A stretch of 17,812 nucleotides of DNA, taken from positions 1 to 17,812 of the forward strand of contig JBBTLZ010000109.1 in the NCBI GenBank assembly GCA_038068435.1, read 5' to 3'. Each line of letters opens with the position of its first letter. The first letter of the stretch is position 1. The position numbers were made by a program, and so were the translations under genes. The notes under the pieces were generated by a model. The model worked only from the letters and a program-made list of their open reading frames with translations, searched no databases and was not told the origin of the DNA. Source of the DNA: Candidatus Eiseniibacteriota bacterium (GTDB lineage Bacteria; Eisenbacteria; RBG-16-71-46). Below, piece by piece: positions 2,145 to 17,508 of this stretch.

Positions 2145-3578
2145 TCAGCGTGTGGGACTGAGTGGGATGATGGCCACAACTGTCGTCCCTCTGGGGCTGG
2201 TGAGGATTTCGAGTTCGCCGGCGAGCTGGCAGACGCGCTCGCGCATCCCGGTGATGCCCACGCCCAATCCCGTGATTTCATCGGGGGCATCGCCGCTCCG
2301 CTCCGGCAATCCGCGCCCCTGGTCGGCCACCTTGAGCGTCACGTGGCCCGCCGCCGAACCGAGGTGCACGAGAGCGGTCGGGCTGCACGAGTGGCGGTTG
2401 ATGTTGCTCAGGCATTCCTGCACGATGCGGAACAGCGCGGTCGCAACATCGGGGTCCAGCCGTGGGAAATCGGGCGCGACCTCGAAGGTCGCCGCGATCC
2501 GGCTGCGCTCTGCGAAGCCCTGCACGTAGCGGCGCAGCGCCGGCACCAAGCCGCCTTTATCGGGCAATGGCGGGTGGAGCAGGTAGGTAATGGTGCGGAT
2601 GGAATTCGCGCACTGGTCGAGCTGCTCATGACACCGCGTGAGCGCCTGGCGAGCGCGCGGGTCGCGGGACACGTCCACGCCGTCGAGCACAGCGAGGTTG
2701 AGCGAGAGAGCCGTGATGTACTGGGCGGTCTGGTCGTGCAGCTCACGCGCGATGCGGCGTCGCTCCTCGTCTCGGAGCTTGAAGAGCCGCGCGGAGAGGC
2801 TACTCAGGGTCGCCTCGGCCTCCCGGAGGCGTGTAATGTCGCGCAACACGGCGAGGTGTACGCCGCGCTGGATGTCGGCGACCACCGTGCACTCAACCAT
2901 GATTCGGTGGCCGTTCTTGCACGCCAACTCCATCTCGCCGTACCATTGACCGTCGGAGCATAACTGGGCGCACATCTCCGTGGACAGCTCAAGGCGGCCC
3001 GGGCGCACGATGTCGGTCGGGTCGAGGCGAAGCAGTTCCCCGCGCGTGTAGCCGAGCATCGTGGTAGTCGCCTGATTGGCATCGACACAATGCCCCTGCT
3101 CGTCAATGATCACGAAGGCGTCGGGCGCGCCGTCGAAGAGTGCCTTGAACCACCGCTGGCTATCCCGCGCCGCGCGCTCGGCCTGCAGACGTCCGGCGAT
3201 GTCCCGAGCGCACACGAGGAGGACTTGCCGCCCCTCGAGCGGAAGTAGGCAGGAGGACATCTGGACGTCGATGGTCGTTCCGTCCCTGCGCTGGTAGCCC
3301 CTCACGATCAAGGCCAGGCGGGATCCGTCGGTTGCGGAGGTCTGCCAGGGCAGGGAGCCGAACGGCGCCGGCACACCGTCGGAGGAACCGACATCGAAGA
3401 GTGTCATGCGCAGGAGCTCCTGATGCGTGTACCCGAGTAACTGGGCTGCCTGGTCGTTCGCCGCCAGGAAAGCCATGGTTCTGGGATCAAAGACCCAAGC
3501 GACGAAGGGGAGTCGATCGACAAGCGATTGGATCGAAAGCGAAACCTGCTGCTGTGTCTGATTAGGACCTGAGACCAT
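2145..3578 (-). CDS. Sensor histidine kinase, multi-PAS, HisKA_3/NarX-class with HATPase_c
   Basis: At least two PAS-like repeats are visible (..FLAANDQAAQLLGYTHQELL.., ..HCVDANQATTTMLGYTRGELL..). H-box: EERRRIARELHDQTAQ (HisKA_3). ATP-binding region: N-box/G-boxes ADQGRGLP...GLGVGITGMRERV. ATG 3578 is preferred over TTG 3605, because RBS GGGAGGTGG lies upstream of the ATG. It forms an operon with the downstream response regulator. Confidence 0.8.
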   Translation of the reverse strand: MVSGPNQTQQQVSLSIQSLVDRLPFVAWVFDPRTMAFLAANDQAAQLLGYTHQELLRMTLFDVGSSDGVPAPFGSLPWQTSATDGSRLALIVRGYQRRDGTTIDVQMSSCLLPLEGRQVLLVCARDIAGRLQAERAARDSQRWFKALFDGAPDAFVIIDEQGHCVDANQATTTMLGYTRGELLRLDPTDIVRPGRLELSTEMCAQLCSDGQWYGEMELACKNGHRIMVECTVVADIQRGVHLAVLRDITRLREAEATLSSLSARLFKLRDEERRRIARELHDQTAQYITALSLNLAVLDGVDVSRDPRARQALTRCHEQLDQCANSIRTITYLLHPPLPDKGGLVPALRRYVQGFAERSRIAATFEVAPDFPRLDPDVATALFRIVQECLSNINRHSCSPTALVHLGSAAGHVTLKVADQGRGLPERSGDAPDEITGLGVGITGMRERVCQLAGELEILTSPRGTTVVAIIPLSPTR

Positions 3579-4148
3579 GCGGCCCCCCCCACCTCCCTGT
3601 AGCAACTCAACTCACGATAGCTCGATAGTCTTTGATGCATCCCCGACTGTAATACAAGAGAATTAAGTCGAACGCTGGGTAACGAGCCGGGACTCGAGAA
3701 TGGTTCAGGTAGTCTCGGTAGGTGAACTGCCCTAAATCACTGGCCTGATTATGAATTGCCCGCGGTAACCGGTTGCAAGTCGTGAGACCTGCCTGCCTTT
3801 GGAGACCGTGGTCGTGGTGCTGGGCAACCCCCGGCTCCGCGAGGAGTGCATGGCCGAAGTAGAGGCTTGGATCAAAGCCAACCTCCATTCAGTGCCGCCG
3901 GGGGATTTGAGGGCTACGAGCAGGAAAACCAGCGGCCTCAGTGGTCCCAGTGGATCTTGAGCGAGGCCAGTCACCCCCTTGATTGGCGGCCAGCCTTCGT
4001 CCCCGCACCGCTGGCTACCGCGCCCGGAAGCCCACAGGTCTTGGTTCAGCCGCGCTCCCCTCCGTCCGATAAGAAGAGGACAGGTCACCCCGGTGGCCGG
4101 GCCGCCGCATGGCCCGTCCCCGGCCCCCCACGGATGAGGGACCTCACC

Positions 4149-5429
4149 ATGTCTCAGCACCGCACCGCGGAGCAGATCCAGCAGTCGTGGGCCTGCGACC
4201 CGCGCTGGCAGGGCATTCACCGCAGCTACTCCGCGGAAGACGTCGTGCGCCTGCGCGGCACCGTGCATGTCGAGCACTCGCTCGCGCGCATGGGGGCGGA
4301 GCGGCTCTGGCACCTGATGACGACGCAGCCGCCGGTGCGCGCCCTCGGCGCCCTCACGGGCAACCAGGCGGTGCAGCAGGTGGCGGCGGGGCTGACCGGT
4401 ATCTACCTCAGCGGCTGGCAGGTGGCGGCCGACGCCAACAGCGCCGGGCAGATGTATCCGGACCAGAGCCTCTATCCGGTGGACAGTGTCCCGGCGGTGG
4501 CGCGGCGCATCAACCACGCCCTCCAGCGCGCCGACCAGATCGATCAGATGGAAGGCCGCGGCGGGAAGACGCAATGGTTCGCGCCCATCGTCGCCGACGC
4601 CGAGGCCGGCTTCGGCGGCGACCTCAACGCCTTCGAGCTGATGAAGGCGATGATCGAGGCGGGGGCGGCGGGGGTGCACTTCGAGGACCAGCTCGCCTCG
4701 GCCAAGAAGTGCGGCCACATGGGGGGCAAGGTGCTGGTGCCGACGCAGGAGTTCGTCCGCAAGCTGTGCGCCGCGCGGCTCGCGGCCGACATCCTCGACG
4801 TGCCGACGGTGCTGGTGGCGCGCACCGACGCCGGCAGCGCCAAGCTCCTCACCACCGACTTCGATCCCCGCGACCGCGAGTTCCTCACCGGCGAGCGCAC
4901 CGCCGAGGGATTCTTCGGTGTGCGGGGCGGGCTCGAGGCGGCGATCGCGCGCGGCCTCGCCTACGCCCCCTACGCCGACCTCATTTGGGGCGAGACCTCG
5001 ACCCCCGATCTCGACGAGGCGCGCCGGTTCGCCGAGGGGATGCGCGCGAAGTTCCCGGGCAAGATGCTCGCCTACAACTGCTCGCCTTCGTTCAACTGGT
5101 CCAAGCACCTCGACACGGCCACCATCGCCAAGTTCCAGCGCGAGCTGGCGGCGATGGGCTACGCCTTCCAGTTCGTGACGCTGGCGGGATTCCACGCGCT
5201 CAACCTGAGCATGTTCGAGCTGGCGAGCGCCTACCGCGACGAGGGCATGGCGGCCTACGCGCGGCTCCAGGACCGCGAGTTCGCGCTCCAGAACCCGCAC
5301 GGCTACGCGGCGGTCAAGCACCAGAGCTTCGTCGGCACCGGTTACTTCGACGAGGTCGCCCGCACCATCGCCGACGGGCAGATCTCCACCGCCGGGCTCA
5401 AGGACTCGACGGAAGAGCATCAGTTCTGA
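4149..5429 (+). CDS. aceA: Isocitrate lyase
   Basis: Diagnostic ICL signature [13 protein letters not shown] is present, together with a conserved N-terminus ([26 protein letters not shown]) and C-terminal region. RBS GAGGGA lies 8 nt upstream of ATG 4149. The ORF-track upstream extension to 3846 has low GC3 and is not coding. Confidence 0.9.
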
Positions 5430-5477
5430 TATGGGACGACCGGTCCGCGGCCAGGCGTGCGGTATCCTCCACGCGCC

Positions 5478-6356
5478 ATGGCCGACCCCCGACCCGCCGA
5501 CGCCTTCAAGGCCTTCGAACACGAAGGCTGGGAGCGTGTCGCGCTCCCCTACCGCGACGCGTTCTCGTCGCTGACCACCCAGGCGATCCCGTCGCTCCTC
5601 GCTGCCGTCGGCGCCGGTCCCGGCGTACGCGTGCTCGACGTGGCGTGCGGGCCCGGCGACGCGGTCGCGGCCGCCGCGAAGCGCGGCGCGCAGGCGACCG
5701 GCGTCGACTTCGCCACCGCGATGGTGGCGCAGGCGTCGCGCCTTTATCCCGGCTTCGCGTTCCGCGTCGGTGACGCCGAGGCGCTGCCCTTCCCGGACTC
5801 CGCCTTCGACGCGGTGGTCATCAACTTCGGCGTGCTGCACTTCGCCGACCCCGACCGCGCACTCGCCGAAGCGCACCGCGTGCTGAGACCGGGGGGCAGG
5901 CTTGCCTTCACGGTGTGGGCGCCGCCCGAGCGGGCGGTCGGCTTCGCGATCGTGCTCAAGGCGATCGAGAGGCACGGGCGCATGGACGTGCCGCTGCCCG
6001 AGGGCCCGCCATTCTTCCGCTTCGCCGACCCGGACGAGAGCCGGCGCGTGCTCTCCGTCGCGGGGTTCGCCCGCGCGCAGGTCCGCGAGTTGCCGCTGCG
6101 CTGGCGACTGCCCGCCCCCGATGCGCTCCTCGATGCGTTCCTGGAGGGAGGCGTGCGCACGCGCGGCCTGTTGCGCGCGCAGACGCCGGCGGCGCTCACC
6201 GCCGTCCGCGAGACGATCCGTGTGGCGACATTGCGCCACGCGCACACGGGCGGCGTGGAGCTGCCGATGCCGGCGGTGATGTCGGCGGCGGAGAAGGGCG
6301 GAGGAGAAGGGATGAGCGGCCGTAGCCGCCGATGCTACACTGCGGCCCTCCTGTGA
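5478..6356 (+). CDS. Class I SAM-dependent methyltransferase (Methyltransf_11/25-like)
   Basis: Motif I VLDVACGPGD, post-I acidic residue and motif II/III (AFDAVVINFGVLHF ... LRPGGRLAFTVW) are present. Start taken at the ATG giving MADPRPAD. Substrate is unknown. Confidence 0.7.
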   Translation: MADPRPADAFKAFEHEGWERVALPYRDAFSSLTTQAIPSLLAAVGAGPGVRVLDVACGPGDAVAAAAKRGAQATGVDFATAMVAQASRLYPGFAFRVGDAEALPFPDSAFDAVVINFGVLHFADPDRALAEAHRVLRPGGRLAFTVWAPPERAVGFAIVLKAIERHGRMDVPLPEGPPFFRFADPDESRRVLSVAGFARAQVRELPLRWRLPAPDALLDAFLEGGVRTRGLLRAQTPAALTAVRETIRVATLRHAHTGGVELPMPAVMSAAEKGGGEGMSGRSRRCYTAALL

Positions 6357-6418
6357 CCTGCGGCCCGTGAGCCGCCCGACTCCTGCCGGGATCGTTCGTC
6401 CCCGGCACCGAGGTGTTC

Positions 6419-7786
6419 ATGGCTGATCTCTCCATCGACTTCGCCGGCATCAAGAGCCCGAACCCATTCTGGCTCGCCAGCGCCCCGCCCACCAACAGTG
6501 GCGACCAGGTCATGCGCGCCTTTGACCTCGGCTGGGGTGGGGCGGTGTGGAAGACGCTCGGCGATCCGATCGTCGACACGTCGAGCCGCTTCGGCTCGCT
6601 CGACGTCAACGGCACGCGCATGGTGGGCTTCAACAACATCGAGCTCATCACCGACCGGCCGCTCGAGGTGAACCTACGCGAGATCCGCGAGGTCAAGCGC
6701 AGGTACGCGGACCGCGCGGTCCTCGTCTCGCTGATGGTGGAGTCCAAGGAGGACTGGCGCGACATCATCAAGGCCTCGATCGACACCGGCTGCGACGGAC
6801 TCGAGCTCAACTTCGGCTGCCCGCACGGCATGTGCGAGCGCGGCATGGGCTCGGCGGTGGGGTCGGAGCCCGAGGTGCTGAAGACGGTCGCGGGATGGGC
6901 GGTCGAGTACTCGACCGTGCCGGTGCTCATCAAGCTCACGCCCAACATCGGCGACATCCTCGAGGCCGGCGTGCCGGCGGTCGAAGCCGGCGTGCACGGG
7001 CTCTCGCTCATCAACACCATCAAGAGCCTGATCGGCGTGGACCTCGACCGGTTCGTGCCCTACCCGGTGGTGGGCAATCGCTCGACCAACGGCGGCTACT
7101 GCGGACCGGCGGTCAAGCCGATCGCGCTCCACATGGTGGCGGCACTCGCCCGCGACCCGCGCATCACCGTGCCGATCTCGGGCGTCGGCGGCATCGCCAC
7201 CTGGCGCGACGCGGCCGAGTTCATCGCCCTCGGCGCCACCAGCGTGCAGGTGTGCACCGCCGCCATGCACTACGGCTTCCGCATCGTCGAGGACATGATC
7301 GACGGCCTCGGCGCCTACCTCGACGACAAGGGGATGAAGTCGGTGAAGGAGCTCCACCGCAAGGCGCTGCCGGCGTTCCGGGAGTGGGGTGACCTCGATC
7401 TCAACTACAAGGTCATCGCCCACGTCGATGCCGAGAAGTGCATCGGCTGCAACCTGTGCTACGTGGCCTGTCGCGACACCGCGGTCCACTGCATCCACAA
7501 CGCCGGCGAGCCGCTCCAGCCCGGCCACCGTGCGACGACGCGCGAGGCGGCCATCACCGCCGCAAGGGCGAAGGACGTGCACATCGTCTGGGTGGACGAG
7601 AGCGAGTGCATCGGCTGCAACCTGTGCGCGGCGGTCTGCCCGGTGCCGGGCTGCATCACCATGAAGGACGAGACCAACGGCGCGCCCTTCGAGTCGTGGA
7701 ACGATCGCATCGCGAAGGGCACCGCGAAGGTGCCGGGCGGGCTCGCCGACTACCGTGCTAGGCACGGCGCGCGGGCGAGGAGCTGA
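6419..7786 (+). CDS. preA: PreA-type NAD-dependent dihydropyrimidine dehydrogenase subunit (dihydroorotate-dehydrogenase-like TIM barrel + 2x[4Fe-4S] ferredoxin domain)
   Basis: DHOD/DPD fold motifs are present (GLELNFGCPHGM, ISGVGGI). The C-terminus carries two CxxCxxC...CP ferredoxin motifs (CIGCNLCYVAC...; CIGCNLCAAVCPVPGC). RBS AGGTG precedes the ATG. No preT/gltD-like partner is adjacent. Confidence 0.8.
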   Translation: MADLSIDFAGIKSPNPFWLASAPPTNSGDQVMRAFDLGWGGAVWKTLGDPIVDTSSRFGSLDVNGTRMVGFNNIELITDRPLEVNLREIREVKRRYADRAVLVSLMVESKEDWRDIIKASIDTGCDGLELNFGCPHGMCERGMGSAVGSEPEVLKTVAGWAVEYSTVPVLIKLTPNIGDILEAGVPAVEAGVHGLSLINTIKSLIGVDLDRFVPYPVVGNRSTNGGYCGPAVKPIALHMVAALARDPRITVPISGVGGIATWRDAAEFIALGATSVQVCTAAMHYGFRIVEDMIDGLGAYLDDKGMKSVKELHRKALPAFREWGDLDLNYKVIAHVDAEKCIGCNLCYVACRDTAVHCIHNAGEPLQPGHRATTREAAITAARAKDVHIVWVDESECIGCNLCAAVCPVPGCITMKDETNGAPFESWNDRIAKGTAKVPGGLADYRARHGARARS

Positions 7787-8049: not shown

Positions 8050-9540
<1,491 letters not shown>

Positions 9541-9541
9541 C

Positions 9542-9569
9542 CCCGGCCCCACCCCTCAGGGGCCGGAGC
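9542..9569 (+). terminator. GC-rich hairpin immediately after the transporter stop (candidate terminator)
   Basis: CCGGCCCC-accccctca-GGGGCCGG is a perfect 8-bp inverted repeat 2 nt after the TAG. A second short hairpin, CCGACC-gt-GGTCGG, follows. There is no U-tract, which is typical for high-GC genomes. Confidence 0.45.
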
Positions 9570-9686
9570 CGACCGTGGTCGGGGATGGCCCCCTGGCTGG
9601 CTGACTCCCGGTTCAGAACTCGATGCGCGCCAGTGGCTTGGCCAGACGTTCGGGACTGCAGCTTCCGAAGTCCATCCGATCGCCTG

Positions 9687-9725
9687 TTGACCCACATTGA
9701 CAAACTATTGATAGACAAGTAGGTT
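9687..9725 (+). promoter_or_regulatory. Candidate sigma70-like promoter for the regulator-suf operon in a locally AT-rich patch
   Basis: TTGACA (9697-9702) is followed by a 17-nt spacer and then TAGGTT (9720-9725), about 30 nt upstream of the regulator start. An overlapping TTGACC lies at 9687. Repeated TTGACA/TTGATA half-sites lie within the patch. Confidence 0.35.
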
Positions 9726-9767
9726 CCGGGCCGAATCTAACTCTCGCGTAAGGGTTTGGAACCCATC

Positions 9768-10322
9768 ATGTCAACGACCCCTGAAGCCACCCAACTCCTC
9801 CGTATCGGCGACCTTGCCCGCCTGACGGGCAAGACCGTCCGGGCGATTCATCTCTACGATGAACTGGGGCTGCTCCACCCGGCGACGCGCTCGAGCGGCG
9901 GGTTCCGACTCTACGAGCGCTCGGCGGTCGAGCGCATGCGCTGGATCGATCTCCTCCACGGCATGGGCTTCTCGCTCCAGGACATGAGCGAAGTGCTGCG
10001 GTCCTGGTGGAGCGCCGACCTGGGGCCAGACGCGATGGAAGGCCTGCGGCGGCTCTTCGCGCGCAAGCTCGCGGAGACCCGCGTCGCGCTGCAGCGACAC
10101 CAGCAGCTCGAGCGCGAGCTCACCCAGGGGTTGGCCTACCTCGAGACCTGCCGTGAGTGCGCCACGCCGGGGGTGCCGGTGAAGGCCTGCGTCCGCTGCG
10201 GGCAGGACCACGGGATGTCGCACGAGCCCGCCCTGGTGGCGGGCATCACCTCGACGCCGGAGCGTTCACGCCGCGGCGCGCGCGGCGGTCTGCTGAGCGT
10301 GGCTGAACCGGAGCCTCGATGA
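9768..10322 (+). CDS. MerR-family transcriptional regulator with C-terminal CxxC-x10-CxxC cysteine cluster
   Basis: N-terminal MerR HTH: LRIGDLARLTGKTVRAIHLYDELGLLHPATRSSGGFRLY. A coiled-coil dimerisation region follows. The C-terminus reads CRECATPGVPVKACVRCGQDHG (nt 10149-10199). The stop TGA overlaps the sufA ATG (ATGA). An alternative start is TTG 9756. Confidence 0.75.
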   Translation: MSTTPEATQLLRIGDLARLTGKTVRAIHLYDELGLLHPATRSSGGFRLYERSAVERMRWIDLLHGMGFSLQDMSEVLRSWWSADLGPDAMEGLRRLFARKLAETRVALQRHQQLERELTQGLAYLETCRECATPGVPVKACVRCGQDHGMSHEPALVAGITSTPERSRRGARGGLLSVAEPEPR

Positions 10323-10720
10323 CGGCGAAGATCCCGGCGGAGTCGATCACCATGGAATCGACGAACGATGGAGAGACGAAAGGAGCCGGCGTCACGATGA
10401 TCACCCTCACCCCGGTGGCCGCTGAGAAGGTCAAGGATCTCCTCGCCAATCGCGGCAACCCGCAGACCGGGCTGCGCATCGGCGTGCGCGGCGGCGGCTG
10501 TTCGGGCAACTCGTACTTCATGGAGTTCTGCGACGCCGAGTCGCCGGGCGATCAGGTGATGGAGTCGAACGGTGTGCGGCTGGTCGTGGATTCCCGCAGC
10601 GCCACGCTCCTCGGCGGGACCGAGTTGGACTACGTCGAGGGCCTGATGGGCACCGGCTTCAAGTTCAACAACCCGAACGTGCGGCACAACTGCGCGTGCG
10701 GGGAGAGCTTCTCGGTCTGA
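10319..10720 (+). CDS. sufA: A-type Fe-S cluster carrier (SufA/IscA/HesB family)
   Basis: The three conserved Cys are present (GGGCSG ... CACGESF at the C-terminus), with a core [18 protein letters not shown] 10319 overlaps the regulator stop. Internal alternative starts at 10352/10397 would give a more typical 108-122 aa protein. Confidence 0.8.
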
Positions 10721-10838
10721 GCGGACCGGGAGCGGCGAGCAGCCACCGAGCATCGCCCGCGCGCCCCGGATGGGGTGGCAGGGGAGCGGTGCTCCAGAAG
10801 CGGCCGGGATCCAGGGCCGCGCGAAAGAACGCGACCAC

Positions 10839-11642
10839 ATGAGCCATGCGCCGGAACTGGTGATCAAGGATCTCCACGTGGCGATCGAGGGCAAGGAGAT
10901 CCTCAAGGGTCTCAGCCTCGAGGTCCGCAAGGGGGAGATGCATGCCCTGATGGGCCCCAACGGCTCGGGCAAGAGCACATTCGCCAACACCCTGATGGGA
11001 CACCCGAAGTACGAGGTCACCTCGGGCGACATCCTGTTCAAGGGCGAGAGCATCCTCGAGCTGGAGCCCGACCAGCGCTCGCGCGCCGGGTTGTTCATGG
11101 CCTTCCAGTACCCGGTCGCCATCCCCGGGGTGACGGTCGCCAACTTCCTGCGCACCGCGCTCAACACGCGGCTGGCGCCGCCGGACACCAACGGCTCGGG
11201 CGCCATGCCACAGCAGCGGGGGATCGCCCCGAAGGAGTTCCGCGCCCTGCTGCGCGAGAAGATGGCCCTGCTCAAGATGGACGAATCGTTCGCGGGGCGC
11301 TACCTCAACGACGGATTCTCGGGGGGCGAGAAGAAGCGCACCGAGATCCTGCAGATGGCGGTGCTCAAGCCCGAGATGGCGGTCATGGACGAGACCGACT
11401 CAGGGCTCGACATCGACGCGCTGCGCATCGTCGCCGACGGCGTGAACGCGCTCGCCGGCCCCGGGATGGGTGTGCTCGTCATCACGCACTACCAGCGCAT
11501 CCTGAACTACATCAAGCCGGACAAGGTCCACGTGATGGTCGACGGGAAGATCGAGGTGTCCGGCGGTCCGGAACTCGCGCTCAAGCTCGAGAGCAGGGGC
11601 TACGACTGGGTGCGGGAAGGGAAGGAAGTGACCGCGCCATGA
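10839..11642 (+). CDS. sufC: Fe-S cluster assembly ATPase SufC
   Basis: Walker [13 protein letters not shown] signature FSGGEKKR, Walker [11 protein letters not shown] and H-loop ITHYQR are present. The N-terminus ELVIKDLHV matches SufC. Its stop overlaps the sufB ATG. Confidence 0.9.
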
Positions 11643-14125
11643 GCACGACGCCCAATCTCGACCTGCGCGAGAGCTACACCGAGAAGTACGGCTTCCACGA
11701 CACGGATCAATTCGTCTTCAAGAGCCGCCGGGGGCTCGACCGCGAGATCGTTGCCCAGATCTCGGACATGAAGGGCGAGCCGCGGTGGATGCGGGACTAT
11801 CGCCTCAAGGCGCTCGAGATCTTCGAGAAGAAGCCCATGCCCACCTGGGGCCCCGATCTCTCGACCATCGACTTCCAGAACATCTACTACTACGTGAAGC
11901 CGACGTCCGAAGAGGCCAAGTCGTGGGAGGACGTGCCCGCCGACATGAAGCGCACCTTCGACAAGCTCGGCATCCCGGAGGCGGAGCAGAAGTTCCTCTC
12001 GGGCGTGGGCGCCCAGTACGACTCCGAGGTGGTCTACCACAAGATCAAGGAACACCTCGAGCAGCAGGGCGTTGTCTTTCTTTCCTGTGACCATGCGCTC
12101 AAGGAGCACGAGGCGCTCTTCAAGGAGTACTTCGGCACGGTGATCCCGTCGACGGACAACAAATTCGCCGCGCTCAATTCCGCGGTGTGGTCGGGTGGCT
12201 CGTTCATCTACGTGCCGAAGGGCGTCAAGGTCGACGTGCCGCTGCAGGCCTACTTCCGGATCAACACCAAGGACATGGGCCAGTTCGAGCGCACGCTCAT
12301 CATCGTCGACGAGGGCGCGTTCGTGCACTACGTCGAGGGGTGTCTGCCGGCGGGGGAGCAGGTCAGTGTCGGCGACCACTGGGTGAACATCGAGAGCGTC
12401 AGCCGCGGCGACGTGGTCATGGACTCCGACGGCGAGGAGTCCGTCGTCGCCAGTACCCGCGTGCTGCCGTTCAAGGGCGACCTCGTCCGCCTGGTCCCGA
12501 TCTCGCGGGCCAACGCCTTTCAGGTCACGCCGGAGCATCCGGTGCTGGTGGTGAGGCGGCGCGACGTGGCGACGAGCCGCCCCCAGCGCGGGAACTGGCT
12601 GCTGGAGGTGAACGGCGAGAAGCTCCGCACGGCGAAGCCGGAGTTCATCCCGGCCGGTAAGCTCGAACGCGGTGACTTCATGGTGTTCCCAATCAGCAAG
12701 ATCACGCGGCCGAATCCGGAGTTCACGCCGGGGATCATGCGACTCCTCGGCTACTACCTGGCCGAGGGCTCCACCTACGTGCACAACAAGCTGAAGGTGC
12801 CGGTCGTCGCTTTCAGTTTCAGCGAGCGGGAGCGCGAGACCATCGACGAAGTGAAGGCGCTGATCCTGGCTTTCACGGGCGAGAAGGCGATGGAGATCCA
12901 CAGCCCCAGTCGCCACGGCATCGAAGTGCGCGTCTACTCGCGCGAGCTGATGGACCTGTGTCTCCTCCACTGCAACAAGCACGCAGCGGAGAAGCGGCTG
13001 AGCAAGGTCGTGATGGAGCTGCCGCCGGGACTCCAGGCGGAACTGCTCGAGACCTACCTCAAGGGCGATGGCAGCGTCTATCGCAAGCGCCAGCACACCA
13101 TGGTGCGCGCGGCGACGGCCTCACCGGCGCTCGCCTGGCAGCTGCAGGAGCTGATCGCCAGGCAGGGTCACTACGCCACGGTCAGCGTCCGGAAGGGCGG
13201 ACCCGACACGATCCTGGGCCGCAGGATCACCCGACACGACCAGTACATCCTCTATTTCTCTCCCGACAAGGAGAAGAGCGAAGTGCGGCGCGGCGACGGC
13301 TGCTTCCTCGTGCCGATCAAGCGCATCGAGCGGACCCCGTACGACGGGCCGGTGTTCAACTTCGAGCTGGCGCGCGCGCCGAACGCCTACGTGACGCGCG
13401 GATTCGCCGTGCACAACTGTACCGCCCCGACCTACTCCAGCGATTCGCTGCACTCCGCGGTGGTCGAGATCATCGTCAAGCCGGGTGCTCGCTGCCGCTA
13501 CACGACCATCCAGAACTGGTCCAACAACGTGTACAACCTGGTGACCAAGCGCGCGGTCGCCTATCGCGACGCGACCATGGAGTGGGTGGACGGGAATCTC
13601 GGCTCCAAGATCACCGTAAAATACCCGAGCGTGTACATGATGGAGCCCGGTGCGCACGGCGAGATTCTCTCGATCGCCTTCGCGGGCCGCGGCCAGCACA
13701 CGGACGCGGGCGGAAAGGTGGTCCACTGCGCGCCAAACACGACGAGCAAGATCATCTCCAAGTCCATCAGCAAGGACGGCGGCCGCGCGGGCTACCGCGG
13801 GCTGGTCAAGGTGCAGAAGGGCGCGGTGGACTCGCGCAGCAACGTCAACTGCGACGCGCTGATCCTCGACGAGAAGTCGCGCTCGGACACCTACCCCACC
13901 ATGGAGATCGAGGAGGACCGGGTCTCGATCGGCCACGAGGCGACGGTGTCCAAGATCGGCGACGAGCAGCTCTTCTATCTGCAGTCACGCGGTATCAACA
14001 AGGAGGAGGCGGCGGCCATGATCGTTTCCGGCTTCATCGAGCCGATCGTGAAGGAGCTGCCGATGGAATACGCGGTCGAGATGAACCGGCTCATCCAGCT
14101 CCAGATGGAGGGCTCGGTCGGATGA
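11639..14125 (+). CDS. sufB: SufB precursor containing a 359-aa intein (mature SufB ~469 aa)
   Basis: RBS GGGAAGGGAAGGAAG precedes the ATG. ATGA overlaps link it to sufC and to sufD. The extein sequence (..[19 protein letters not shown] | [20 protein letters not shown]..) is continuous SufB sequence interrupted by the intein. C-terminal SufB motifs are present. Confidence 0.9.
12341..13417 (+). mobile_element. Intein with LAGLIDADG homing-endonuclease domain inserted in sufB
   Basis: The element is in frame and 1077 nt long (359 aa). Cys1 (TGT 12341) starts block A ([14 protein letters not shown]...). Block B has TxxH (VTPEHPV). Two LAGLIDADG motifs are present: [10 protein letters not shown] (~12744-12773) and [11 protein letters not shown] (~13044-13076). 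The terminal ...FAVHN is followed by the Cys+1 of the C-extein (TGT 13418). Confidence 0.85.
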
Positions 14126-15462
14126 CGCCCTCGACGACGACGACGGCGATTGATCTCGCCGCCTGGGAGACCGGCGCGCTGCAGCGCGCGGCGAAGCAGG
14201 ATGAGCCGGCCTGGGTCATCGACCAGCGCCGGGTCGCGGCGGGCCACGCGCGCGCACTCGGCTTGCCGAGCCGGGATCACGAGTTGTGGCGCCGGATCGA
14301 CTTCCGCACCCTCGAGCAGGCGTTGCCGTCGCTCGATCCGTTCCGGGAGACGGCGGCCACCCGCGATTTGGGCGACCTGCCGGCCGCGCTGCTCGAGCGG
14401 CTGGGGGGCGAGTCGGGCCGCGTGGGACTCGTCGTGCAGCGCGACAGCGGCGTCGTCATCGCGCAGACGGCGTCCGAGCTGGCCCGGCAGGGCGTCATCG
14501 TGTGCCCGCTCGGACGCGCGCTCGTCGAGCACGGCAACCTGCTGCGCGAACGGCTGGGCGCCCTGATCGAGCCGGACTACGACGGCTATGCCGCACTCGG
14601 TGCGGCACTGCGCTCGGGCGGCGCATTCGTCTACGTGCCCGACGGGGTGGAGGCGGCGGTCCCAATCCGGCTTTTCGACTGGCTGGATGGGGTCGGCGCG
14701 CTGGCCGCGCCGCGCACCGTCATCGTGCTCGGGAAGAACGCGCGGGCGACCATCGTGCATGAGCAGCTCTCGGAGTCCGCCGAAGGGATCGCATTCCACC
14801 TGGGCGGCACCGAGGTGTTCCTCGGCCAGGACGCGAAGCTGGTCTACGGCACGCTCCAGGAGTGGGGTCGCCACGTCTACCACTACTCGAACCAGCGAGT
14901 GCAGGTCGGGCGCGGGGCCGAGCTGCAGTGGATCCAGACCATCCTCGGCGGCCGGATGGTGAAGACCAACTCGTATTTCAACATGATCGGGCCGGGTGCG
15001 CAGGTCTTCGTGCACGGGTTCATGTTCGGCGACGGCCGGCAGCAGTTCCATCTCCACACGCTGCAGCGGCACCTGGCCGACCACTGCACCAGCGACCTGC
15101 TCATCAAGGGCTGCCTCAAGGATCGGGCACGCAGCATCTACCAGGGCCTGATCCAGGTCGCCGAGGGCGCCCAGCGCACCGACGCCTATCAGGCCAACCG
15201 GAACCTGTTGCTCTCGGACACCGCGCGCGCCGACAGCATCCCCGGCCTGGAGATCCTGGCCAACGATGTGCGCTGTACGCACGGCGCCACCATCGGCAGC
15301 GTGGACCCGGAGCAGATGTACTACCTCATGTCCCGCGGACTCCCGCGCAACACGGCGCAGCGGCTCATCGTCGAGGGGTTCTTCGCGCCGGTGATCGACC
15401 GCATCCCGCTCGAGGGCATCCGGGAGCATCTGCGCCAGGTGATCCAGCGGAAGATCGGATAG
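14122..15462 (+). CDS. sufD: Fe-S cluster assembly protein SufD
   Basis: A SufB/SufD-family beta-helix core is visible (..AFVYVPDGVEAAVPIRL..; ..LLLSDTARADSIPGLEILANDVRCTHGATIG..). ATG 14122 overlaps the sufB stop (ATGA). The protein is 446 aa. Confidence 0.85.
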   Translation: MTPSTTTTAIDLAAWETGALQRAAKQDEPAWVIDQRRVAAGHARALGLPSRDHELWRRIDFRTLEQALPSLDPFRETAATRDLGDLPAALLERLGGESGRVGLVVQRDSGVVIAQTASELARQGVIVCPLGRALVEHGNLLRERLGALIEPDYDGYAALGAALRSGGAFVYVPDGVEAAVPIRLFDWLDGVGALAAPRTVIVLGKNARATIVHEQLSESAEGIAFHLGGTEVFLGQDAKLVYGTLQEWGRHVYHYSNQRVQVGRGAELQWIQTILGGRMVKTNSYFNMIGPGAQVFVHGFMFGDGRQQFHLHTLQRHLADHCTSDLLIKGCLKDRARSIYQGLIQVAEGAQRTDAYQANRNLLLSDTARADSIPGLEILANDVRCTHGATIGSVDPEQMYYLMSRGLPRNTAQRLIVEGFFAPVIDRIPLEGIREHLRQVIQRKIG

Positions 15463-15467
15463 GGCAG

Positions 15468-16772
15468 ATGGCGCTCCGTCACGGCAGCGCGGGCGCGGTC
15501 CGGGCCACCCCCGGAGCGGCGGCGGACGCCCCGTCCCCGGCGCGCCCGGCCTTCGATCCCCACGAGGTCCGGCAGCAGTTCCCGATCTTCCGCACCGCCC
15601 GCGCCAAGCCGCTCTGCTACCTCGACAGCGCTGCGACCAGCCAGAAGCCCGACGCAGTGCTGGCAGCGATGGACCGCTACTACGCGACCTGCAACGCCAA
15701 CATCCATCGCGGCATCTACGCGATCGCCGAGGAGGCGACGGCGGCCTACGAGGATGCGCGCCGGCGCGTGGCGCGGTTCGTCAACGCGCGCTCGCCGCGC
15801 GAGCTGATCTTCACCCGCAACAGCACCGAGGCCATCAACCTGGTGGCCTACGCATGGGGCCGCTCGCAGCTCAAGTCCGGCGACGCGATCGTGCTGACCG
15901 AGATGGAGCACCACTCGAACCTGGTGCCGTGGCAGATCCTCGCCCACGAGCGCGGCCTCGCGCTGCGCTTCATCCCGATCACCGGGGATGGCGAGCTGGA
16001 TCTCGCGGTATTGCCCGGGCTGCTCGCCGACGGGCGGGCCAAGCTGGTGGGCGTGGTGCACATCTCGAACGTGCTCGGCACCGTGAACCCGGTGGCCGAG
16101 CTCGCGCGGCAGGCGCACGCCGCCGGCGCGCTCATGCTGCTCGACGCCTCGCAGAGCGTGCCGCACTGCCCGGTGGACGTGCAGGCGCTGGGCTGCGACT
16201 TCATGGCATTCACCAGCCACAAGATGCTCGGGCCCACCGGCATCGGCGCGTTGTGGGCGCGCCGCGAGTTGCTCGAGGCGATGCCGCCCTTCCTCGGCGG
16301 CGGCGAGATGATTCGCGAGGTGAGTCTGACCGAATCGAAGTGGAACGAGCTGCCGTGGAAGTTCGAGGCCGGCACGATGGCAATCGCCGAGGCGGTGGGC
16401 TTCGGTGCGGCGGTCGACTATCTCGAGGCGCTCGGCATGGACCGGGTGTTCGCCCACGACCGCGCGCTGGTCGCTTCGACCATGGAGCGCCTGCGCGAGG
16501 TGCCGGAGCTCACCATCCTGGGCCCGCCGGCCGAGCGCCGCGGCGGCGTCATCGCCTTCACCCTCGACGAGCTCCATCCGCACGACGTGGCCACGGTGCT
16601 CGACGACGAGGGCGTGGCGGTGCGCGCGGGCCACCACTGCGCGATGCCGCTGCACGAGAAGCTCGGCGTGCCGGCGAGCGCGCGGGCTTCGTTCTACTGC
16701 TACACGGTGCCGGAGGAGATCGACGCGCTGGTGCGCGGGCTCCACCGCACGCGCAAGGTGTTCGCGCGATGA
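15468..16772 (+). CDS. sufS: Cysteine desulfurase SufS (class II aminotransferase class V)
   Basis: The PLP-lysine context SHKMLGPTGIGAL is present, and the catalytic Cys lies in RAGHHCAMPL. The N-terminus FPIF..KPLCYLDSAATSQKP matches SufS. The ATG lies 5 nt after the sufD stop. The ~25-aa Ala/Pro-rich N-terminal extension may instead reflect a later non-ATG start. Confidence 0.85.
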   Translation: MALRHGSAGAVRATPGAAADAPSPARPAFDPHEVRQQFPIFRTARAKPLCYLDSAATSQKPDAVLAAMDRYYATCNANIHRGIYAIAEEATAAYEDARRRVARFVNARSPRELIFTRNSTEAINLVAYAWGRSQLKSGDAIVLTEMEHHSNLVPWQILAHERGLALRFIPITGDGELDLAVLPGLLADGRAKLVGVVHISNVLGTVNPVAELARQAHAAGALMLLDASQSVPHCPVDVQALGCDFMAFTSHKMLGPTGIGALWARRELLEAMPPFLGGGEMIREVSLTESKWNELPWKFEAGTMAIAEAVGFGAAVDYLEALGMDRVFAHDRALVASTMERLREVPELTILGPPAERRGGVIAFTLDELHPHDVATVLDDEGVAVRAGHHCAMPLHEKLGVPASARASFYCYTVPEEIDALVRGLHRTRKVFAR

Positions 16773-17167
16773 GCGGGTTGGAGGATCTGTTCCGCGAGAA
16801 CATCCTCGACCACTACCAGCACCCGCGGAATCACGGGACGCTCGAGCACCCGGACATCACCTACGAGGACGCGAATCCGCTGTGCGGCGACCGGATCCGG
16901 ATCGACGTCAACGTGAAGGACGGACGCATCGAGCAGGTTCGGTTCTCGGGGGTCGGCTGCTCGATCAGCCGGGCGGCCGCCTCGATGCTGTGCGAGGCGG
17001 TCGAGGGCAAGACGCTCGAAGAGGTCAAGACGCTGTCGCGTGACGACGTCCTCGAGATGCTGGGCATCGCGCTGGGTCCGGTGCGGCTCAAGTGCGGGAT
17101 GCTGGCGCTCAAGACGCTGAAGGCCGGGGTCTACGGCATCCATCAGTGGCCCGGCGAGGACGAGTGA
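16769..17167 (+). CDS. sufU: SufU (NifU/IscU-like zinc-dependent sulfur-transfer protein)
   Basis: The N-terminus has the SufU hallmark NHGTL; three conserved Cys are present (NPLCGD, GVGCSIS, LKCGML). An ATGA overlap links it to sufS. The protein is 132 aa. Confidence 0.85.
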   Translation: MSGLEDLFRENILDHYQHPRNHGTLEHPDITYEDANPLCGDRIRIDVNVKDGRIEQVRFSGVGCSISRAAASMLCEAVEGKTLEEVKTLSRDDVLEMLGIALGPVRLKCGMLALKTLKAGVYGIHQWPGEDE

Positions 17168-17181
17168 CGGGAGGGGACGTG

Positions 17182-17508
17182 ATGAGCGATATCCAGGCCG
17201 GGAGGTTCGTGACGGTGGCGAAGGTGGGCGAGATCCCACCGGGCGGGGTCAAGGTCGTGCGCCTCGACGACCAGGAGATCGCCGTGTTCAACCTCGCGGG
17301 CGCGTACTACGCGATCGACGACGTGTGCACGCACGACGGTGGCCCGCTCGCCGAGGGCCTGATCGACGGCGACGCGATCGAATGCCCCCGTCACGGCGCG
17401 CGCTTCGACATCCGCACGGGGAGGGTGCTGGCGATGCCGGCGACCGTGCCGGTGCCGACCTACGCCGTTCGCGTGGAGGGCGAGGAGATCCAGGTGGGAT
17501 GGTCATGA
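17182..17508 (+). CDS. Small Rieske [2Fe-2S] ferredoxin
   Basis: Rieske motifs CTHDGGPL (CxH) and CPRHGARF (CxxH) are separated by 16 residues. RBS GGGAGGGGA lies 5 nt before the ATG. The stop overlaps the sufT ATG (ATGA). Confidence 0.8.
   Translation: MSDIQAGRFVTVAKVGEIPPGGVKVVRLDDQEIAVFNLAGAYYAIDDVCTHDGGPLAEGLIDGDAIECPRHGARFDIRTGRVLAMPATVPVPTYAVRVEGEEIQVGWS

Follow-up and report, generated by a model that had tools for sequence, protein, structure and literature searches.

A SufB intein with a putative LAGLIDADG homing endonuclease in an uncultured Eisenbacteria-like bacterium

We analyzed a contig of 17,812 nucleotides (nt) from a Candidatus Eiseniibacteriota bacterium (JBBTLZ010000109.1; the whole stretch is called the window below) and found that its sufB gene, encoding a scaffold protein of iron-sulfur (Fe-S) cluster assembly, carries an insert that is almost certainly an intein, as an original prediction made from the DNA alone had proposed. 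The insert is likely to be a canonical class 1 intein with an embedded double-motif LAGLIDADG homing endonuclease, to represent the allele known from Mycobacterium tuberculosis (Mtu) SufB (Pps1), and both to splice and to home. Taken separately, splicing is probable by analogy with the Mtu protein, and an active endonuclease is favored with less confidence. The gene is divided as follows.

11639..12340, + strand: SufB N-extein, 234 amino acids (aa), ending ...FVHYVEG (translation; TIGR01980; aligns with residues 33-253 of E. coli SufB and with intein-less orthologues)
12341..13417, + strand: intein, 359 aa, 40.4 kDa, pI 9.3 (gap relative to intein-less orthologues; same-site homologues; AlphaFold2 model; homology with the Mtu intein)
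13418..14125, + strand: SufB C-extein, 235 aa plus stop, beginning with Cys+1 at 13418-13420 (alignment with PDB entry 5AWF resumes at C254)

The sufB gene (11639-14125, + strand) starts with the ATG at 11639, stops at 14123-14125 and translates in a single unbroken frame into an 828-aa precursor with a predicted mass of 93.1 kDa. The NCBIfam profile TIGR01980 calls the whole precursor SufB (709 bits), and in Pfam the SUFBD_core match is split in two around a LAGLIDADG_3 match. The insert reads CLPAGEQ...GFAVHN and is followed by CTAPTYSS. A joint MAFFT alignment of the precursor with SufB proteins that carry an intein at a second site misaligned both inteins, and for this reason pairwise global alignment was used. 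Against the intein-less proteins P0027, P0028 and P0037, each 470 aa long and sharing 92-94% identity with the spliced extein, precursor residues 1-234 and 594-828 formed aligned blocks. Hence, the unaligned part is exactly residues 235-593, or nt 12341-13417, and the predicted boundaries are right to the base. When the 469-aa spliced sequence was used as a query, it retrieved thousands of SufB proteins, the best of which (468-471 aa) were 87-94% identical with 100% query coverage. In the alignment with E. coli SufB (PDB 5AWF), the two pieces abut at G253/C254 (here and below, slashes mark intein borders). Thus, removal of an in-frame insert gives a contiguous conserved SufB, which is what defines an intein. 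An exact-protein look-up found no record of the precursor.

The Cys+1 residue of the window SufB aligns with C254 of E. coli SufB, which is the persulfide acceptor from SufE and is needed for cluster assembly (PMC13485665). As Cys+1 is the C254 equivalent, the intein splits the scaffold just before a catalytic residue and borrows this residue as a nucleophile. Inteins typically insert at such functional sites.

The predicted splicing blocks A, B (TxxH) and F/G (terminal His-Asn) were all located by translation.

12341..12691, + strand: N-terminal splicing (Hint) region, intein aa 1-117 (border set by analogy with Mtu Table S2; mostly beta strand in the AlphaFold2 model)
12341-12343, + strand: block A Cys1 (translation; invariant in homologues)
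12527-12538, + strand: block B TPEH, T63-P-E-H66, aa 63-66 (translation; T63 and H66 invariant)
13301..13417, + strand: C-terminal splicing region with blocks F and G, intein aa 321-359 (H358 and N359 invariant; TIGR01443)
13409-13417, + strand: terminal VHN, V-H358-N359, aa 357-359 (translation)
13418-13420, + strand: Cys+1 (translation)

Homologues for comparison were collected by scanning a single genome for each GTDB species, with the first LAGLIDADG motif as the search pattern, and the best 80 of 247 loci were kept. Residues C1, T63, H66, H358 and N359 are invariant in the alignment of these 80 homologues. In 76 of the 80 kept loci the intein lies in SufB at the identical xEG/C...HN/CTAP site, and in all 76 the terminal HN is followed by Cys+1. 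The window intein thus has the features of class 1, namely Cys1, block B TxxH and a terminal His-Asn followed by Cys+1.

As the sequence profiles of the Hint domain match weakly (scores are given below), the fold was examined by structure prediction. An AlphaFold2 model calculated from a nine-sequence alignment has a predicted local distance difference test (pLDDT) score of 92.3 and a predicted template modeling (pTM) score of 0.89. The top matches of this model in a Foldseek search of the PDB were full-length intein-endonucleases, TliVMA 7qsu (E 2.9e-18, TM score 0.71), PI-SceI, PhoVMA, PI-PkoII and PI-PfuI. With TM scores of about 0.7 to full-length intein structures, the splicing domain is predicted to have the Hint fold. 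The solved proteins (TliVMA/PhoVMA, 7qsu, 7qss, 7qst; PI-SceI, 1vde, 1lws; PI-PkoII, 2cw7; PI-PfuI, 1dq3) share with the window model a two-domain organization, in which a Hint horseshoe is combined with a pseudo-dimeric LAGLIDADG core (Foldseek E 1e-13 to 3e-18, TM 0.6-0.7). However, they are only 9-15% identical to the window intein in sequence and their hosts are V-ATPase, DNA polymerase and ribonucleotide reductase rather than SufB. The window intein is also smaller than PI-SceI and, judging from its length, apparently does not have the extra DNA-recognition region of PI-SceI.

The closest well-studied system is the intein of Mtu SufB (Pps1, Rv1461), which occupies the same site of the same host protein (YVHYVEG/CLPAGE...GFAVHN/CTAPIY). 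The Mtu domain borders are documented in a supplement, where the N-extein ends with YVHYVEG, the intein runs CLPAGEL...GFAVHN and the C-extein starts with CTAPIY (PMC8891592). Both inteins are 359 aa long, both consist of an N-terminal splicing region, a two-motif LAGLIDADG domain and a C-terminal splicing region, and both have Cys1, the block B T..H, His-Asn, Cys+1 and the extein residue His-5. A BLASTP alignment of residues 1-359 of the window intein with residues 1-354 of the Mtu intein gives 34% identity (E 6e-58), a value that is approximate because the Mtu sequence was machine-read from the supplement and comprises 354 of the 359 residues. The splicing parts (41% identity) are closer to each other than the endonuclease parts (29%). 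Given the identical site, the equal length and the end-to-end homology, the two sequences are assigned to the same allele, even though one host is an actinobacterium and the other is an uncultured Eisenbacteria-like bacterium. One difference concerns the N-extein, where His-5 and His-38 are reported to assist N-cleavage in Mtu: the window SufB keeps His-5 and has a lysine in place of His-38. His-38 is a property reported for Mtu and no defining feature of the allele. The Mtu SufB precursor splices in vitro, and its end-to-end homology and identical site speak for the original description of the window intein as probably splicing-competent. A "Block-F Asp77" cited for Mtu mapped to no conserved column of our alignment and was not used.

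The endonuclease domain lies between the two splicing regions of the intein.

12692..13300, + strand: LAGLIDADG homing-endonuclease domain, intein aa 118-320 (LAGLIDADG_3; Foldseek; conservation; ratio of nonsynonymous to synonymous substitution rates, dN/dS)
12743-12772, + strand: motif 1, aa 135-144, including LLGYYLAE142G with the catalytic E142 (translation)
12992-12994, + strand: codon of the block D lysine K218 (conserved in 80/80)
13046-13078, + strand: motif 2, aa 236-246, including LETYLKGD243G with the catalytic D243 (translation)

The domain looks intact, as had been predicted, since both acidic residues are present and the Pfam profile PF14528 (LAGLIDADG_3) matches well above its cutoff (E 6.6e-13, 49.2 bits vs 22.5). 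Among the 80 homologues D243 is kept in 79 and K218 in all. In the AlphaFold2 model, beta hairpins come after both helix 130-142 and helix 229-243, and the middle domain is matched in Foldseek by I-DmoI, I-Tsp061I and I-SceI (E 3e-6 to 3e-5), so that the model predicts a pseudo-dimeric alpha-beta-beta-alpha-beta-beta-alpha fold. The sole match in a sequence search of the PDB was the endonuclease domain of PI-PkoII (E 1.3e-4), and this search found no solved SufB intein. A literature search for endonuclease assays of PI-MgaI or Pps1 found nothing useful. The M. gastri Pps1 intein is reported to be an active endonuclease, which was not used as evidence here.

The proposed sequence of events would be the following. 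The sufB message would be translated as the 93.1-kDa precursor, in which the insert would split the beta-helix core. Cys1 would undergo an N-S acyl shift aided by block B Thr63 and His66, and Cys+1, the future sulfur-acceptor cysteine, would attack the resulting thioester. Asn359 would then cyclize with the aid of His358, and an S-N shift would give a 52.7-kDa SufB together with a free, basic 40.4-kDa intein. The released SufB would be able to assemble with SufC and SufD. The free intein may in turn cut intein-less sufB site-specifically around ...CACTACGTCGAGGG/TGYACC..., and repair from an intein-bearing copy would spread the intein (homing).

Whether the endonuclease still serves such a cycle can be judged from its evolution in the host clade. 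The dN/dS ratio of the endonuclease domain is 0.16-0.20 relative to the three nearest inteins and 0.16-0.26 over the five nearest, which is comparable to that of SufC and SufD; for the three nearest, the N-terminal splicing region has ratios of 0.21-0.31 and the exteins have ratios of 0.07-0.13. At the protein level, the endonuclease domain is 80-82% identical among close relatives and the splicing parts are 74-79% identical. The endonuclease domain is under purifying selection. In the neighbor-joining (NJ) tree of the clade's exteins, 117 alleles have no intein and ten carry one, the latter dispersed among the former, and the smallest extein clade that joins the window with its relative L037 includes ten intein-less sequences; this tree was built without bootstrap from closely similar sequences, which limits its resolution. 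An empty target site is found in an orthologous operon: the intein-less P0028 is encoded on contig L081 in a syntenic MerR-sufA-C-B-D-S-U-Rieske operon, and its site GAGGGCGCGTTCGTGCACTACGTCGAGGGC/TGCACGGCGCCCACCTACTCGAGCGACTCG matches the spliced junction of the window in 53 of 60 nt. Scattered alleles, selection and an empty site fit the pattern expected of a homing cycle and, indirectly, lend support to the earlier suggestion that the intein may still be mobile.

Several observations weigh against an intein that both splices and homes. Both activities themselves are what we infer from these data. On the splicing side, TIGR01443 (intein_Cterm) barely exceeds its cutoff (16.8 bits vs 15.6, once Cys+1 is included), and PF14890 (Intein_splicing) gives 15.3 bits with an E value of 0.017 relative to a gathering score of 35.8. 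The N-terminal intein profile TIGR01445 has no match on the window intein, and the Vint profile matches weakly (E 0.065). Of the profile searches proposed with the original prediction, LAGLIDADG_3 was positive and those for the Hint splicing domain gave weak matches; a PF14890 match is precomputed for some homologues of the window intein. Furthermore, the canonical block F aspartate of the textbook consensus seems, from the alignment, to be Asn340 in this intein family, but this type of block F is common to the Mtu relative, which still splices. On the endonuclease side, E142 is kept in 80/80 homologues, yet this count is not independent because the genome scan pattern was [RE]L[LA]GYYLAE, and the invariance is therefore partly by construction. 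The GC content at third codon positions (GC3) of the intein is 0.91 (host genes 0.92-0.95), its synonymous divergence (dS) is host-like, and the ten Eisenbacteria-type inteins are monophyletic (78% bootstrap, NJ). Hence, the intein has long resided in this lineage, and repeated precise loss rather than current homing could account for its scattered distribution.

The last set of observations is the basis of an alternative in which splicing continues while the endonuclease has ceased to cut DNA and is kept for fold stability or another role, so that an ancient gain was followed by repeated precise loss. Full amelioration, with dS near that of neighboring genes, and the monophyly of the host-clade inteins, which broadly track the exteins, agree with it, as do the fact that the nearest copies of the window intein are only 81-84% identical, with no near-identical copy found elsewhere, and the loss of an acidic residue in some family members such as P0004, which has AGNGN in motif 2. 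However, E142, D243 and the block D lysine are intact in the window intein, its endonuclease dN/dS (0.16-0.26) is no higher than that of the splicing domain, and close relatives offer empty target sites. A low endonuclease dN/dS is reportedly unexpected, in the homing-cycle theory of Goddard and Burt, once nuclease function has become dispensable. We therefore consider a retired endonuclease rather unlikely.

The alternative that there is no functional intein at all, and that the insert reflects an assembly chimera, a pseudogenized sufB or a non-splicing bacterial intein-like (BIL) insertion, could draw on the weak Hint profiles and on the circumstance that the window is probably a metagenome assembly whose exact protein is not on record elsewhere. 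It is contradicted by the unbroken reading frame, the confident predicted fold, the same architecture at 76 independent genome loci, and the presence of His-Asn and Cys+1, unlike in typical BIL domains. Several independent intein-bearing contigs are also colinear with the window. One of them, L037 from a Candidatus Eisenbacteria metagenome-assembled genome (MAG), is 83% identical to it at the nucleotide level over 7.7 kb, and other contigs, mostly labeled Eisenbacteria, are 76-81% identical. The closest named relatives of the spliced extein are Eisenbacteria too, and the different labels of a few related bins may be binning noise. This explanation is extremely improbable. The frame, the contiguous SufB alignment after excision and the AlphaFold2/Foldseek match to inteins all point the other way from the failures (a frameshift, a non-contiguous SufB, a missing Hint fold) that had been named as fatal to the prediction.

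Three further signals in the history of the intein were pursued and set aside. Compositional foreignness gave no signal, as GC and GC3 (0.91) are host-like. Recent cross-phylum transfer was suggested by the identity of the window intein to Chloroflexota inteins (73%) and to some inteins of its own clade (69%), compared with extein identities of 70% and 92%, respectively. It was dropped, and no recent inter-phylum transfer is claimed, because the Eisenbacteria-type inteins are monophyletic and the window pairs with L037 as its sister whether the tree is built from inteins or from exteins; only L012 (Armatimonadetes) nests within the Chloroflexota inteins (99%). Intein replacement was considered from dS, which for the intein is the highest of the operon relative to L037 (0.67 vs 0.33-0.60) and lies in or near the range relative to L047 and L015, and proved indecisive.

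The original prediction placed SufB inteins in mycobacteria and a few other lineages, which understates their spread. Relatives of the window intein occur at 247 GTDB species-representative loci, and more than 15 phylum labels are found among the best 80. The bacterial labels include Eisenbacteria, Chloroflexota, Planctomycetota, Armatimonadota, Acidobacteriota, Cyanobacteria, Latescibacterota, Actinomycetota, Proteobacteria, Clostridia, Bacteroidota, Bipolaricaulia and phyla of the candidate phyla radiation (CPR), and the archaeal ones include Nitrososphaerota and Thermoplasmata. Homologous inteins reach an E value of 5e-132, which, like the LAGLIDADG_3, Mtu intein and Foldseek matches, lies well outside the range of chance. 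In a library of 1.84 billion representative sequences, 53 clusters match with E <= 1e-30, and the number rises to 1157 for E <= 1e-10. Many of the database homologues (P0001, P0002, P0006, P0009-P0011 and others) are fragments or have been called from Met codons inside the intein, and it seems that intein-bearing sufB is often truncated or miscalled in metagenome annotation.

Relatives of the window intein were also seen in two other Fe-S-related proteins. In L076 (frame aa 78-434), P0013 and P0017, from hosts that include an Iainarchaeum archaeon and CPR Microgenomates, the relative resides in IscU/NifU_N and is 36-37% identical over all 359 aa. Its site, ...FG/C[intein]HN/CVAAIATSS, is directly before a conserved cysteine, and the spliced IscU extein matches PF01592 (E 3e-41). 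Among the papers searched, none pairs "intein" with "IscU". In L075 (frame aa 58-415), L080 and L074, from DPANN-type archaea, a relative with 37-38% identity is found in the beta subunit of 2-oxoacid:ferredoxin oxidoreductase at the site ...VSGIG/C[intein]HN/CGSKTPH, and the spliced extein matches TPP_enzyme_C and PFO_beta_C. The L074 frame has an additional, different intein upstream. Together with SufB, these relatives therefore make up one intein clade in three Fe-S-related host proteins. It is highly unlikely that this clade, beyond being a selfish passenger, is a pan-phylum element specialized for key Fe-S cysteines, with host maturation tied to the thiol redox state; the +1 nucleophiles concerned would be the persulfide-acceptor cysteine of SufB and a conserved cysteine each of IscU/SufU and of the oxidoreductase beta subunit. 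If it were, Fe-S assembly in this organism would truly be gated by redox state after translation, through SufB splicing, and such gating would recur across bacteria and archaea.

SufB also has a second intein site, VDGNLG/C...VVHN/SK, located 61 residues downstream of the window's site and followed by serine at position +1. The second-site intein (P0040, P0044, P0106) is likewise of the LAGLIDADG type, measures about 340 aa and shares host protein and clade with the window intein, but it has no detectable close similarity to the latter and is absent from the window. It is carried by some Eisenbacteria-type SufBs that do not have the window intein, and also by P0012, L010, L019, L026, L031 and L044. 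In some genomes two to three inteins occur in one sufB, with frames of 1240-1650 aa.

It has also been considered that the intein, in addition to being an intein, was recruited as a switch for conditional splicing, in which oxidation of Cys1/Cys+1 would stall SufB maturation under oxidative or nitrosative stress. The Mtu SufB intein agrees with the window intein in site and Cys1/Cys+1 chemistry; according to a review, its splicing is inhibited by an H2O2-induced Cys1-Cys+1 disulfide (PMC8529194, citing Topilina 2015), and unspliced Mtu SufB reportedly fails to bind SufC and SufD (same review, citing Huet 2006). The identity of Cys+1 with the scaffold's persulfide-acceptor cysteine and the persistence of the allele in many phyla are also in agreement with such a role. 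However, very many inteins possess a Cys1/Cys+1 pair, and the histidine at position -38 that is reported to assist N-cleavage in Mtu is a lysine in the window SufB. Moreover, 117 of 127 close alleles have no intein, and as most close relatives do without it, an important regulatory role in this clade is argued against. A co-opted switch is therefore unlikely here, and the redox or stress checkpoint put forward in the original prediction is an extrapolation from M. tuberculosis. The accompanying idea that this is the organism's only Fe-S assembly system is likewise an extrapolation, drawn from a 17.8-kb window.

The sufB gene overlaps its neighbors at both ends, its start with the sufC stop (ATGA) and its stop with the sufD start, and belongs to a suf operon.

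9756..17508, + strand: surrounding suf operon (Pfam scans; SufS start read separately)
9756-10322, + strand: MerR-family regulator (Pfam scan)
10319-10720, + strand: SufA-like carrier (Pfam scan)
10770-11642, + strand: SufC (Pfam scan)
11639-14125, + strand: SufB (Pfam scan, TIGR01980)
14122-15462, + strand: SufD (Pfam scan)
15468-16772, + strand: SufS (Pfam scan)
about 16790-17167, + strand: SufU/NifU_N (Pfam scan)
17092-17508, + strand: Rieske protein (Pfam scan)

In contig L081, an extra PMT_2 (glycosyltransferase-like) gene (494-1966, - strand) is situated between the permease and MerR genes and is absent from the corresponding part of the window (9540-9756). Elsewhere in the window, a gene for a gas vesicle protein (PF00741, E 6e-17; 551-1012, + strand) adjoins genes for a LuxR-type response regulator (1498-2136, - strand) and a PAS/HisKA_3 histidine kinase (2145-3605, - strand). 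Rfam and tRNA scans of the window gave no match. Long open reading frames on the opposite strand (3732-6245, 6674-7765, 8350-9552 and 11600-13096, all - strand; up to 837 aa) match no family and are artefacts of the GC content of 61-75%. The real genes opposite such artefact frames are the following.

3846-5429, + strand: isocitrate lyase
5457-6356, + strand: methyltransferase
6413-7786, + strand: PreA-like dihydroorotate dehydrogenase (DHODH)/4Fe-4S protein
8050-9540, + strand: cytosine/purine permease

In summary, the window contains an orthologue of a well-studied intein, a finding that is real but ordinary. For annotation, it means that the locus is one sufB with an intein, neither a fusion nor two genes. 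An intein allele initially described from mycobacteria gains an Eisenbacteria-like host lineage, and this allele spans many bacterial and archaeal phyla, in each case interrupting SufB directly ahead of the sulfur-acceptor cysteine. No long-standing question becomes newly testable, as mycobacteria already offer a way to test the redox-switch idea. An orthologue that is divergent, GC-rich and apparently intact may nevertheless provide a point of comparison for work on conditional splicing and endonuclease specificity.

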